Position numbers and translations under genes: made by a program
Origin: an uncultured Thermodesulfobacteriota bacterium
Lineage (GTDB): Bacteria; Desulfobacterota; GWC2-55-46; JADFVP01
Length of the DNA: 64,000 bases
Assembly: GCA_964407495.1 (NCBI GenBank)
Contig: CAYOVP010000001.1
Span: forward strand, 11,829 to 75,828
Direction: 5' to 3'
Part shown: positions 17,964 to 22,916 of the stretch, piece after piece
How positions within the stretch are numbered: position 1 is the first letter of the stretch
How the letters are laid out: every line of letters begins with the position of its first letter
The notes under the pieces: model-generated
Seen by the model: only the letters and a program-made list of their open reading frames with translations
Told to the model about the DNA's origin: nothing
Database searches by the model: none

Positions 17964-20900
17964 ATGCGTTTAACTCGAATACTGCATAAAGAGCGCGGAT
18001 TCACCCTTGTAGAACTCCTCGTGGCCATGGCCATCGGGGTGCTCGTCATAGGCTCGGTGTACGCGCTCTACAATTATTATCTGCGTGCCTCCACGGGCCA
18101 GGACAACCTCCTCCAGATACAGCAGGAGACGAGGGTGACCATGGAGAAACTGGTGAAAGAGGTACGCGCCGCAGGGTGTTACTACAAGGATACGCCCATC
18201 ATAACCGCTGATGTGAGTACCTTTGAGTTCGAGTCTGATACAGACCCAGACCCCAATCTCGGCCCATGGAAGATAAAATACGAACTCGATACAACCACCA
18301 ATGAACTCAAGAGGAGCACGGCCACATGGAATGGTTCGGCCTATGGCGCATATGGAACGCCCGTGGTCCTTGCAGGCGATATTACGGCCCTTACCTTCAG
18401 TTATTATGACGAGAACGATACCCTGATCCCTGCGCCGGTCCAGTCACAGGCCAATAGAGACCGCATCCGGCGGGTAGGCATAGCCATGACGGCATCTACG
18501 CCATACCCCAACCCCTCTACCAACAAGATAGACACCATTGACCTCGAGACCAGCATATCCCTTCGGTGCATGGGTGTACAGCAGTCCACGGACACTACTG
18601 AATGTGCACTGCCAACTAATATACAGTCCACAGACCCAGGTGTATGCGGAAGGCTGAACATCACCTGGACCAAGAGTTCCAGTTCCGATGCCGCGGGATA
18701 CAAGTTGTATTACCGTCCCACCGGGACGGCCTTTTACACAGGCCTCATAGACGTACCCGGAGGGGCTACCGAGTCTTACACCCTTACGGGTCTTACCGAT
18801 GGACAACAGTATGATATTGCCATGAAGTGTTATGATACATCTGGCAATATCAATGAATCCTTTACAACTCCAATATCAGGTACGAGCGGAACTACGGACA
18901 CGAAGCCCGATGATTCCACGGCGCCGGAACTTCCGGCCAATACGGACGCCACGGCAGGGGACGGTGTGGTTACGCTCACATGGGACGCCAGTACCTCTGT
19001 GGACGCAGGCGGCTACCACGTGTACAGGAGTGATAATGGCGGCTCTACCTACTCGCAGATAGCGGAACTCGACTCCACCTATCTGACCTATTCCGACACT
19101 ACGGTCGCAAACTGCCCTTCAACCCCCTATTATTACAAGGTAGTCACTTGGGACTGCGCTGGTAACGAGAAGAATACTGCCTTACAGAGCGCCGTATACG
19201 GTGACGGCTCGGACACTGGAGCCGACCAGCCCACTGCAGGTGTAACGAGTACTGATCCCTACGAGACCGTGGCCCCGGCAGACCCTACGCCCTTCATTGC
19301 TGTGCCTGCGGCTGACAAGATATACATGAGCGATACTACGCCGGCAGATACGGACCTCGCTGGTGTACGTATCCTTCGAAGGACGGACCAGTACCCCAGC
19401 GGCCCCACAGATACTTCTGCCATAGGCCCCAACAACAGGCCGGATTACGGCGCGCTCCAGCCCTCGCAGACATATTCGCTCGTTGACAGTTATGGCATAA
19501 ATATCGGCACTACGTACTATTACAGGGCCTTTGCCTATGACAGGTGTGGCAACTTCAGCCCAGGGGCCTCATCCCTTGCCACTGCCGCCCCATGCGGTGA
19601 CGGAAGCCCCGGGTCCAAGCACTATGGCCCACCGTCTGCCCCTTCGTCGCTCTCAACATCCACCTGCTCTACATCTACGGTCTCATGGACAGACTCGGCG
19701 GGGAGTGAGAACGGTAACCTCTTCAACCCGGCTTCTGAGAGTGATGTGGTGGGTTACTACGTATACAGGAGCGATGTACAGGGAGGGCCCTATACAAAAC
19801 TCAATAGTACGCCTGTAACGGCAACGAGTTATGCCGACAGCACAGTAACCCCTGGCACCACCTATTACTACACCGTTACTGCCGTCGACTGCGCACTCAA
19901 CGAGAGCACGGTCATGTCTCCTGAGGTCACGGTCATGCCCACGGACATTGCCTGGGACCCTGCCATCACTGTAATTACCTCGGGGACCGCCTCGCTGAGC
20001 GGGAGCCAGCACAACGTGGTGACCATAGGCATAAAGAACACGGGTAACAGTTCAGTCACCATAAACTCTGCTACCTTTGTCTGGGGCGTTGCCACTGCCA
20101 AACTCCGCAAGGTGGTGCTCGAGCCCTTTGGGGGGAGCAGTAATACTCTCTGGGACGGCACGGACGTGGCCTCTGGATATGTGGTGGACTTTGCCTCCTA
20201 TGAGCCGGACGGTTCTCTCCGGAGGCTCTCCGGGTCAACGGGTCTGAACAAGTTCGTACTGGACTTCAGGGACTCGGCGGGCACAGGCTTTGTGGACATG
20301 AGAGGCGCCAGCATCGTAGTCACTCTCAACTACACGAACGACCTTGACGGCGCCTCCTGCAACTCGAGCACATTTACAGTGCCCGTGACCGTGGGCCCCA
20401 CCATCACGGCCAGTGTGCAGGACAGGCCCGTAACCCCGACTACGTCAAACGTAAATGCCGCTAACATAACGGTAAAGACGGGTACCCAGGATACGAATTA
20501 TAACTGGACTTCCTATGACGTGAACGTCAGCGACACTGTGAGCCCTGACACTGGCACCACCATAACCTCAGCAAAACTCTATTACAACACAACGGACAAG
20601 ACCACTGCCTCTGCCCCTGCCACGGATTATTCCTCTACGCCATCGGGATGGACAGCCATAGACATGTGCCAGGTGGGCACTACCAATACATACCAGACAG
20701 AGTCCTCTGGAACGTGTACATCGAGCCATGTGCCAGACCTTACGGGCAAGAGGGTCTGGTACTACATCGTCATGACAGACAGCGACGGCAATTATGATAT
20801 CCAGCCAGAGCCTTCGGTGGGTGTGTATACCTATGACCAGGACTCGAGGTTCGACATATATATGGTCGTAAATAGGAGCGGCAGTGGTGGTCAGGACGTG

Positions 20901-21242: not shown

Positions 21243-22916
21243 ATGAGAAATAGAAGCGAGAAGAGAACAAAGAGAAAGACCGGGCTCTGTATGCCAGGGC
21301 TTCTCGGTGACGAGAGAGGCATAGTGCTTGCCATCACTCTCATGATAATGGGCATCATGGCCATAATAGGCGCGGCCATCATAGCCACATCGACAACAGA
21401 TGTGAAGGTGGCCGCAAATGTAACAAGGTCTATCCAGGCCCTCAACAGCGCTGAGGCCGGCCTGAGCAATGCCATAAACTACATAAGGGCCAACCCTGAC
21501 TGGGCCCCGGACCTCAACAAGAACGGCAATCTCGAGGATGACGCACAGGAGTGGGCCGCGCAGACCCAGGGTACAATAGACATGGGCACTGTGAGCGGCA
21601 CCTATGCCATAGCCGTATACGATGCAACGGGGAAATACGGCAGGGGCGATAATTCCTCGCGGTCCGACAAGTACACTACGCTCGGCCCCAACGACATCCT
21701 CATAGAGTCCACGGGTAATGTCAACGGCGTGACAAGGAAGGTGGGCCTCATTGTGCGAAACGCCATTACTGCCTTTGATTATGCAACATTCAGCAACGGC
21801 GAGATAGAAGGTAAGGGCATAGGCTCCAATCCCGGTAAGTTCACGGGCAAGATCTATGGTGCGGAGAAGATAAACCTCCAGGGCAACTTCGACCTTGCCG
21901 CGGCCCAGGCACAGTCTCCAGGCGGCAACATAACCCCTGACTGCAACAGCGGCAAGTTCCAGTCCTGTGACAATAACGCCTCTGCCGTATCTCCTCCGGT
22001 CCTTGATTTCGCCTTCTACCAGGACCAGAACAACTTCACGGATCAGCAGGTCTTCATGATGACCCCAACTGTGGGGAGTACTTCCTCGTGCGGCACTAAC
22101 TGCACAGAGTGGCCCATAAACTACAACATCACCACGCTGGGTACGTCCTATACAGTGCGGGCCACGGTACAGGCCGTCTGCACCACCTGCAGCGAGCACG
22201 AGCATGACCATCACGGGACTTACAACCACACTGTCTACTGGTGTTCTGACCCCAACTGGAACGGTGTCATAGGTTCATGCTCGGGCACATCGGGCTCCTA
22301 CACCTTTACAGCCGATGAAATGGAGAACGAGAAACCCTTCATAAACGCAGAGCAGTTCAATACCTACACCGCCCCTACGGGCACGGACTACACCTCCAGC
22401 GTGGTGAACATTATAGACGCCCAGAAGCACCTCGAGTTTCTCGGCCCCTCTGACCCCGCGGCCTCGGTGGATATAACGGCGAGTATCCTTGTCGGCACTT
22501 CTGCCGACAACTCTCAACCCGCTGGTAAGATTGACTTCGAGGGTGGGGCAGGGACCATGAACTTCAAGCCCGCCAACGGCCTTGCCATAGTGGCAGAGAA
22601 GGTAGAGGTAAAGTCCAAGTACAGTTCCATCAACGTAAACGTTGGCACGGCCACCGACGGTGCCGTGATCATAGCCACCGATGAGATGGAGGTGGAGGCT
22701 GAGTCAGACAAGGGCGGAAATTACTCTGCCACGTTCAACATGAACGGCACTCTTCTTGTGGGCAATGACTCCCTTGAGCCCGGAGAACTCGATGTGGGCG
22801 GCGAAGGCAACACCAGCGCCAACTTCACCTACACGCCTGTCACCAACCTGCCACAGGGCTGGCAGGACTACGGCACCATGACAATAGAGAGGAGAGAATG
22901 GAGAGAACTGAGCTGA
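21243..22916 (+). CDS. PilX-like minor pilin / pilus-associated protein with large C-terminal extension (557 aa)
   Basis: PilX_N-type N-terminus: basic leader, TM helix IVLAITLMIMGIMAIIGAAIIATSTT, then ..AEAGLSNAINYI... The remainder is Thr/Gly/Asn-rich and predicted beta-rich. Confidence 0.7.
   Translation: MRNRSEKRTKRKTGLCMPGLLGDERGIVLAITLMIMGIMAIIGAAIIATSTTDVKVAANVTRSIQALNSAEAGLSNAINYIRANPDWAPDLNKNGNLEDDAQEWAAQTQGTIDMGTVSGTYAIAVYDATGKYGRGDNSSRSDKYTTLGPNDILIESTGNVNGVTRKVGLIVRNAITAFDYATFSNGEIEGKGIGSNPGKFTGKIYGAEKINLQGNFDLAAAQAQSPGGNITPDCNSGKFQSCDNNASAVSPPVLDFAFYQDQNNFTDQQVFMMTPTVGSTSSCGTNCTEWPINYNITTLGTSYTVRATVQAVCTTCSEHEHDHHGTYNHTVYWCSDPNWNGVIGSCSGTSGSYTFTADEMENEKPFINAEQFNTYTAPTGTDYTSSVVNIIDAQKHLEFLGPSDPAASVDITASILVGTSADNSQPAGKIDFEGGAGTMNFKPANGLAIVAEKVEVKSKYSSINVNVGTATDGAVIIATDEMEVEAESDKGGNYSATFNMNGTLLVGNDSLEPGELDVGGEGNTSANFTYTPVTNLPQGWQDYGTMTIERREWRELS

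Follow-up and report, generated by a model that had tools for sequence, protein, structure and literature searches.

In diderm bacteria, the usual description of the type IVa pilus has four small core minor pilins that are capped by a non-pilin adhesin, PilC/PilY1. How might a pilus tip be assembled where two of the four minor pilins are enlarged and the gene cluster holds no pilY1? This question is raised by a stretch of DNA of 64,000 nucleotides (nt), called the window here, from an uncultured Thermodesulfobacteriota bacterium (contig CAYOVP010000001.1); the host has been called an uncultured "sulfate-reducer-type" bacterium, and a 114.5-kb JGI metagenome contig contains a stretch identical to the window. 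All coordinates below are window positions. On the + strand, a fimT/GspH-pilV-pilW-pilX set lies between pilD, a histidine kinase gene, and a sigma54 response regulator gene on one side and pilMNOPQ on the other, and its third and fourth genes are uninterrupted open reading frames (ORFs) for a giant PilW of 1071 amino acids (aa) (17964..21179) and a PilX-like protein of 557 aa (21243..22916). A preliminary description of this DNA had noted two enlarged minor pilins, one PilW-like and one PilX-like, as the coordinates, the N_methyl and PilX_N matches, and the positions of PilW and PilX in the operon order now confirm. We consider it rather probable that the segment 16926-22916 is an operon for the tip (priming) complex of a type IVa pilus, in which the canonical minor pilins follow the order H-I-J-K (FimT, PilV, PilW, and PilX) and two of the four are enlarged, and that by analogy with known pili its products form a PilY1-independent tip complex with PilX as the cap or plug and the giant PilW stalk as a tip adhesin arm.

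The two enlarged minor pilins

The N-terminal part of the giant PilW (aa 1-205; 17964..18578, + strand) was delimited as a pilin module, with a leader, Glu5, an alpha1 helix (aa 15-68), and two beta-sheets, by means of N_methyl, secondary structure from AlphaFold2 (AF2), hhalign, and a profile search. Its class III signal has a predicted cleavage site at KERG|FTLVELLVAMAIG with Glu at +5, and Pfam N_methyl matched aa 8-33 with 33 bits against a cutoff of 21.2. G12, F13, and E17 were invariant in all 22 giant PilW orthologues aligned, and pilD is located 4 kb upstream of the gene. On these features, the 1071-aa protein is classed as a type IV prepilin with a class III signal peptide. In the AF2 model, the helix at 15-68 is followed by eight strands up to about aa 202. 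When a profile of aa 1-208 was compared by hhalign with Escherichia coli PpdB, a probability of 94% was obtained over 122 columns, well beyond the helix; GspJ gave 85%, GspH gave 75% over only 20 columns, and GspK gave no match. A search with the same profile found 93 proteins, mostly of 190-280 aa and named PilW, PulJ, or PpdB, and several of these matches carry PF16074 or PF11612 (PF27121 was also among the Pfam labels), at coverage of 80-95% and E values down to 1e-25. The closest curated model, NCBIfam PRK10557, which judging from its length would be a PpdB-type model, matched the helix only (28 bits against a cutoff of 120), and a PDB profile search with the N-terminal module also found the pilin helix only. 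Because of the PpdB/PilW profile matches and the third place in the operon, aa 1-205 are assigned to a standard-size J-class (PilW/GspJ) pilin module, and the remainder is read as a C-terminal graft. A Geobacter-type conductive pilin was considered as well and rejected, because the likeness is restricted to the generic N-terminal helix.

The graft begins with four FN3-like modules (aa 211-306, 318-412, 438-541, and 556-656; 18594..19931, +), continues with two beta-sandwich domains, D5 and D6, defined by AF2 and profile search (aa 658-822 and 828-960; 19935..20843, +), and ends with a distal domain, D7, marked by a weak MG2/Ig-like match and by column conservation (aa 961-1071 and the stop codon; 20844..21179, +). 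The AF2 model, built from the orthologue alignment, has a mean predicted local distance difference test score (pLDDT) of 80, with low-confidence linkers at 203-210, 415-429, and 823-830. The FN3-type repeats that had been noticed in the preliminary description were confirmed as four modules by Pfam, PDB profiles, and AF2: Pfam fn3 covers aa 217-299 here and was matched in all orthologues, PDB profiles of FN3 domains matched three of the four modules, and the modules are mutually related in hhalign (F1-F2 95.8%, F2-F4 98.7%, and F2-F3 39%). D5, D6, and D7 were ruled out as diverged FN3 copies, with internal hhalign probabilities of at most 6%, and the same comparison detected no relationship of D5-D7 to one another. 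A profile search with the C-terminal 416 aa found no sequence relative in the PDB, and Pfam gave weak hints only on D5-D7, namely MG2 in 11 and DUF4352 in 6 of the 22 orthologues. D7 is the least conserved segment of the protein (column conservation of 0.55 vs 0.66-0.82 elsewhere) and ends in an invariant Cys pair. A modular pilin has been defined as an N-terminal IPR012902/N_methyl module joined to a domain that is not specific to pilus biology (PMC8179133). N_methyl and fn3 occur together in the 1071-aa protein and in 22/22 orthologues, and the protein thereby counts as a modular pilin in the sense of Raynaud et al. 2021.

The PilX-like protein comprises a leader with a GspK/PilX-type pilin domain (aa 1-175; 21243..21767), an ice-binding-protein-like beta-solenoid (aa ~180-535; 21780..22847), and a C-terminal strand ending in GTMTIERREWRELS and the stop codon (22860..22916), all on the + strand; the last of these, seen in the alignment and as an AF2 strand at 546-556, is a candidate for a last strand of the pilin sheet supplied in cis. 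Pfam PilX_N matched aa 25-74 with 35.2 bits against a cutoff of 25.5, and the protein has a predicted cleavage site at DERG|IVLAI, without Glu5. Absence of Glu5 marks the cap (K-class) subunit. Having PilX_N, no Glu5, a GspK-like fold, and the fourth place in the gene order, the 557-aa protein is classed as a PilX/GspK K-class cap pilin. Its AF2 model (pLDDT 84.7; predicted template modeling score 0.75) runs from a helix at 24-83 through a four-strand sheet at 109-175 and ~360 residues of short parallel strands to a last strand at 546-556. Fold matches of the model were ice-binding-protein beta-solenoids (13.0-14.2) and Thermus thermophilus ComZ (13.2, with 243 residues aligned), and, further down, tapirins (about 9), GspK (8.1), and XcpX (7.1), and a PDB sequence profile search gave nothing useful and no sequence similarity to ComZ. 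The modeled fold is that of a ComZ-type solenoid pilin, which combines an ice-binding-protein-like solenoid with a GspK-like pilin domain. Among 31 aligned PilX orthologues, E552, W553, and E555 of the C-terminal strand were invariant, and R550, R551, R554, and L556 were nearly so. The order of the elements, with an invariant REWRE motif in the last strand, fits a solenoid placed before the final strand, as an order rather than a three-dimensional arrangement, and the C-terminal strand would most likely complete the pilin sheet in cis.

For the 1071-aa protein, 24 full-length orthologues (1054-1111 aa, 49-100% identity) came out of a word-indexed search, all with N_methyl and fn3; the alignment of 22 of them is collinear, with a mean column identity of 62% and 16 of 16 Cys invariant. 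The 557-aa protein has 33 orthologues (44-100% identity), many from contigs matching in length, and their C-terminus is strongly conserved. A scan of species-representative genomes gave 16 loci, 15 of them in uncultured Thermodesulfobacteriota or 'Deltaproteobacteria' metagenome-assembled genomes (MAGs) and the weakest, L018, in a Bacteroidota MAG. By tblastn, the order secA-argJ-HEPN-pilD-histidine kinase-response regulator-fimT-pilV-giant pilin-PilX-HTH-pilMNOPQ was found in at least 12 loci; this synteny also holds at two loci whose giant pilin shares just 34% identity and in relatives where only D5-D6 are recognizable.

PilY1 and the proposed tip complex

Pfam detected no PilY1/Neisseria_PilC domain (PF05567) in any scanned ORF of the window (its large + strand ORFs and selected - strand ORFs) or of the 10 kb downstream, and no pilY1 was present in any of about 20 related loci examined, including the position next to pilX. 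Neither enlarged pilin matches PF05567, and their AF2 models consist of beta-sandwiches and a solenoid, with no PilY1-like propeller. These scans agree with the earlier observation that the cluster lacks pilY1. In known systems, pilY1 adjoins pilX in the order fimU-pilVWXY1 (PMC13533445). The sole propeller in the window is the Kelch beta-propeller of a 591-aa protein with C-terminal TPR repeats (47182-48957), which has no PilY1 signature and no pilus link.

The last strand of the PilK/PilX sheet is reportedly supplied either in trans by the C-terminus of PilC/PilY1, as in Pseudomonas or Neisseria, or in cis, and the completed PilK sheet is recognized by the PilI-PilJ pair; the strand comes in cis from the K-class pilin wherever PilC/PilY1 is absent, that is, in GspK of the type II secretion system (T2SS), Com pili, the V. 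cholerae competence pilus, and CpaL (PMC13533445). The PilX-like protein fits the cis class, because it has a conserved C-terminal strand of its own. In the tip complex that we propose, PilX would be a cap lacking Glu5, with its solenoid of ~360 residues between the pilin sheet and the last strand, and this strand would complete the sheet in cis and so replace the trans step of PilC/PilY1. The complex would assemble without PilY1, and the solenoid would fill the 'plug' position on the pilus axis. The giant PilW would dock in its usual place in the tip complex, because Glu5 and a normal pilin module are kept, and its graft of ~870 residues would hang from the tip as a flexible arm, some tens of nm long as estimated from the seven beta-sandwich domains. 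The four FN3 modules and D5-D6 may form a conserved spacer or scaffold, and the variable D7 would be the likely contact surface presented to a ligand; the invariant cysteines would stabilize all of these domains. A tip function built into the minor pilins, as the preliminary description put forward, fits published precedents and is plausible; the adhesive part of that proposal we infer from the domain types.

Several points weigh against this proposal. FN3 and Ig-like domains frequently act as spacers and not in binding, and a recognizable lectin, vWA, or other binding module is missing from the giant PilW. Pfam PilW (PF16074) and T2SSJ (PF11612) match neither the 1071-aa protein nor the 22 orthologues at E<=1. 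The candidate cis pairing of the PilX strand rests on element order, and passage of a disulfide-bonded stalk of ~870 residues through PilQ is assumed by analogy with PilY1. The search for pilY1 covers the 64-kb window and 10 kb of the host genome, with the major pilin and pilBTC lying outside this part, and all sequences compared come from metagenomes or MAGs. Finally, among solved structures PilX has its closest relative in ComZ, which binds DNA, not surfaces (PMC6561018).

The last point leads to a competence (DNA-uptake) pilus tip, in which the solenoid PilX would be a ComZ-like DNA receptor and the giant PilW a DNA-capture accessory instead of a surface adhesin. We regard this as unlikely, although it does not exclude adhesion, with which it is compatible. 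Sequence similarity to ComZ is lacking, and the two Lys residues that are important for DNA binding by ComZ could not be mapped; Pfam scans of the window showed no comEA/comEC or dprA, the operon sits with the general pilMNOPQ machinery, and a seven-domain beta-sandwich stalk is without precedent in DNA capture. No more probable, in our judgment, is a conventional PilY1 encoded elsewhere in the genome that caps the pilus, with the enlarged minor pilins only adding surface. About 74 kb of the genome were inspected, and many bacteria have several minor-pilin/PilY1 sets; one related genome (L025) has two minor-pilin sets. However, pilY1 was missing next to pilX in the ~20 loci, both L025 sets included, and the conserved C-terminal strand of PilX itself makes a strand in trans unnecessary under the PMC13533445 model.

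The machinery may also form no more than a short stub resembling the pseudopilus of type II secretion; the stalk would then be a cell-surface protein shown at the secretin or immediately beyond it, and not on a long retractile pilus. The minor pilins are indeed GspH/I/J/K-like, and Pfam scans found no major pilin, pilB, pilT, or pilC in the window; a distant relative, P0140, carries the same stalk on a Sec-dependent multiheme cytochrome head, and the stalk can therefore work without a pilus. We nevertheless consider a stub improbable, since PilM/N/O/P and a PilQ with AMIN domains are hallmarks of type IVa pili, not of the T2SS, and no GspC/L/M or T2SS substrate gene is found nearby. That the long ORFs are separate genes joined by frameshift or misassembly, the objection that the preliminary description had raised to its own claim, can be set aside with near certainty, because full-length orthologues of both proteins (24 + 33 independent ones, with differing samples and assemblers behind them and identities as low as 34%) keep the identical architecture in the same gene order, conservation is even over the full length with the Cys invariant, and the AF2 domains are confident across all junctions; both are real single genes.

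Known pilins and a wider family

Parts of the proposed PilY1-independent tip have clear counterparts. In ComZ, whose best fold matches are GspK and an ice-binding protein, a solenoid of ~380 residues follows the penultimate strand of the pilin sheet and precedes the final one (PMC6561018; PDB 6qvi), and a solenoid is present in all cyanobacterial PilX homologues, where it was proposed to substitute for the PilY1 plug (bioRxiv 10.64898/2026.02.12.705559). The PilX-like protein shares with them a GspK-like fold with a large triangular ice-binding-protein-like beta-solenoid followed by the last strand, a length of about 550 aa, the lack of a canonical Glu5, a gene beside those of other minor pilins in a system without pilY1, and a proposed place on the pilus axis as cap or plug. 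It differs from the DNA-binding ComZ in having no detectable sequence similarity to it and in belonging to another phylum (Thermodesulfobacteriota MAGs here), and the insertion point of its solenoid is deduced from secondary-structure order.

The catalogue of modular pilins of 2021 lists >1200 proteins in 264 architectures; FN3 (IPR003961) is among the 15 commonest grafts, with an unclear function, and the most extreme case has 860 residues with 12 motif copies (PMC8179133). In S. sanguinis, the modular pilins PilB (vWA) and PilC (lectin) are tip adhesins without PilY1 (PMC8179133, PMC9934059), and these two together with an I-like pilin replace HIJK and PilY1. The giant PilW resembles such proteins in joining a normal pilin module to a non-pilus C-terminal graft that is expected at the pilus tip. 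In contrast, the diderm type IVa pilus studied here keeps all four H/I/J/K classes, its graft has seven domains (~870 aa) in a protein whose relatives reach 1931 aa, as against 860 residues for the extreme of the catalogue, no recognizable vWA or lectin domain is present, and D5-D6 have no Pfam family.

The T2SS proteins GspK/GspJ and the Tad pilus proteins CpaL/TadG provide a further comparison: a cap subunit without Glu5, with an inserted or appended extra domain and its own terminal beta-strand, has a J-class partner that cradles the strand (PMC13533445), and the pilin module of the giant PilW matches both PpdB and GspJ. The insert of GspK, however, is alpha-helical and sits at another point of the sheet (PMC6561018), GspJ has about 200 aa and no graft, and this locus has the PilMNOPQ machinery in place of Gsp or Tad. 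PilC/PilY1 itself is likewise >1000 aa long, modular, and presumably displayed at the tip, its gene lies within or beside the minor pilin operon, and the plug and adhesin functions proposed here are those assigned to it. PilY1 is nonetheless a non-pilin with a C-terminal beta-propeller that joins via a beta-strand in trans (PMC13533445), whereas both proteins here are pilins with class III signal peptides.

Full-text literature searches found no paper describing a giant J-class pilin together with a solenoid PilX without PilY1; a mention of FN3 in M. xanthus concerned SgmI, a non-pilin protein. The preliminary description called the architecture poorly described, and this is true of the PilW half but not of the PilX half, which is a further member of the ComZ architecture solved in 2019; the modular-pilin concept is not new either. 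What is new is a graft on a core J-class pilin of a diderm type IVa pilus, the size of that graft, its conserved family-specific D5-D6, and the consistent pairing of a giant PilW with a solenoid PilX, in loci without PilY1, across a deep uncultured lineage. The locus suggests that this lineage builds its pilus tip differently, with a self-completing cap pilin that carries a plug and a J-class pilin that carries a long adhesin-like stalk. If so, the modular-pilin idea would reach the core minor pilins of diderm type IVa pili at sizes well above those catalogued, the locus would offer a natural test case for the model of cis versus trans beta-strand licensing, and D5-D6 would be newly defined as a pair of domains specific to pilins. 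In practical terms this carries limited weight, as the members all come from metagenomes.

An exhaustive hidden Markov model search with the C-terminal 416 aa returned 117 proteins, 70 of them below 1e-10 and almost all 1000-1900 aa long, in which D5-D6 match at about residues 750-1150. A strict prepilin motif was present in 72 of the 85 proteins of at least 900 aa, and about 9 more start inside the pilin helix (miscalled starts). The giant pilin family has at least 80 members, with a median length of 1434 aa and a maximum of 1931 aa. In the members inspected individually, the operon consists of genes for a GspH-like pilin, a PilV-like pilin, the giant pilin, and a PilX_N protein of 419-557 aa, and two of them lie in the same secA...pilMNOPQ neighborhood; the source was a metagenome or MAG for all 10 members for which it was checked. 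Because nearly all of the long matches are prepilins, and those inspected individually share one operon slot, D5-D6 mark, at the level of sequence, a family of giant J-class pilins that is so far undescribed. It is possible, though we hold this tentatively, that giant PilW proteins (four FN3 modules and D5-D6, at least 80 sequence clusters, 1000-1900 aa) are a widespread, hitherto unrecognized class of tip stalk adhesins that replace PilY1 together with a self-completing solenoid PilX across a deep Thermodesulfobacteriota-like lineage. D5-D6 would then be a pilin-specific functional module, the distal domains would set ligand specificity, and the ligand would perhaps be a mineral or redox-active surface, a hint given because the stalk of one relative hangs on a multiheme cytochrome. 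Beyond this one fusion, in a distant relative and possibly from a chimeric assembly, we found no evidence for the mineral attachment that the preliminary description had suggested.

The relative in question, P0140 (L024:8001-11906, 1301 aa), has the FN3-D5-D6 body on a Sec signal peptide and a seven-CxxCH heme domain, without a pilin head; it shows weak MtrC/MtrF and cytochrome C7 Pfam matches, lies outside any pilus operon, and, starting with the third FN3, is by eye near the giant pilin P0133. Either the assembly is chimeric, or a genuine domain swap ties the stalk to extracellular electron transfer. In the L025 genome, the two minor-pilin sets lie side by side (1-3124 and 5875-12230), the first with a third gene product of normal size (251 aa) and a 483-aa PilX and the second with a 1178-aa giant pilin and a 557-aa PilX, and PilY1 is missing from both. 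The first set contains an inserted 23S rRNA-IVP family gene, and a GGDEF-EAL gene separates it from the second.

The gene cluster and its surroundings

The type IVa pilus cluster spans 12855-29679 on the + strand, as defined by ORFs and Pfam, and opens with a prepilin peptidase gene, pilD (12855..13706; A24_N_bact and Peptidase_A24), whose upstream position is kept in syntenic loci. It is followed, on the same strand, by a HAMP histidine kinase gene in a PilS-like position (13722..15260; HAMP, HisKA, and HATPase_c) and a gene for a sigma54-dependent response regulator in a PilR-like position (15257..16606; Response_reg, Sigma54_activat, and HTH_8). The two small minor pilins, also encoded on the + strand, are the GspH-class FimT/FimU (16926..17516, with SQRG|FSLVE; Pfam N_methyl and GspH), for which the JGI gene call starts 15 codons later, and the GspI-class PilV (17510..17959, with GQDG|FTLLE; N_methyl and translation), for which NCBIfam type_IV_pilV was the top match, under its cutoff.

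A sigma54 promoter-like site, TGGCATGGCTGTTGCT, was found by pattern match at 16873..16888 (+), ~40-55 nt upstream of fimT and directly after the sigma54 activator gene, and of 15 related loci, 11 have TGGCAY-N5-TTGCH at the corresponding place upstream of fimT. Counted over the whole window, the pattern shows no excess over chance, and the case is made by position and conservation. Because of this position upstream of the operon and the recurrence among related loci, the minor pilin operon is probably transcribed from a sigma54 promoter under control of the adjacent kinase/regulator pair. A second site of the sigma54 -24/-12 type lies at 16752-16766. A scan of the minor pilin operon for sigma70 promoters and terminators gave chance levels only, the pilX-pilM spacer has no meaningful repeats, and Rfam found no RNA family in the window.

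Downstream of pilX on the + strand, Pfam identified a 65-aa HTH_3 (Xre-type) protein (23216..23413) and then pilM, pilN, pilO, pilP, and pilQ, the last encoding a 1145-aa secretin with AMIN domains (23425..29679). Every locus that extends to this region has the HTH_3 gene between pilX and pilM, including L015, L016, L026, and L027, where the giant pilin is barely recognizable; it is unusual for a small regulator to be fixed within a pilus cluster. PilQ (26242-29679) is unusually long and has three AMIN stretches, and across the orthologous loci its N-terminal half is far less conserved than its secretin half, the alignment beginning at about residue 570 in several of them. Upstream of the cluster, Pfam identified recN, pmbA, genes for a Crp-family regulator and an M23 peptidase, secA, argJ, and a HEPN gene; all syntenic loci keep the last of these (12377-12799), with 61-94% identity, in its place between argJ and pilD.

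A radical SAM gene and genes for cyclic di-GMP (c-di-GMP) and two-component signaling follow the cluster (Pfam). Among them, c-di-GMP turnover genes encode a PAS-GGDEF-EAL protein (32161-34227) and a 1227-aa response regulator-PAS-GAF-HD protein of HD-GYP-like type (37279-40962), and both may be linked to surface behavior. Farther downstream, a heavy-metal (copper-type) efflux island at 51584-62074 encodes an outer membrane factor, a CusB-like fusion protein with a heavy-metal binding domain, an AcrB/CusA-like pump, a DUF2231 protein, and a P-type ATPase that carries YHS and two HMA domains, and a diheme cytochrome c gene lies at 49628-50383 on the strand opposite to the island.

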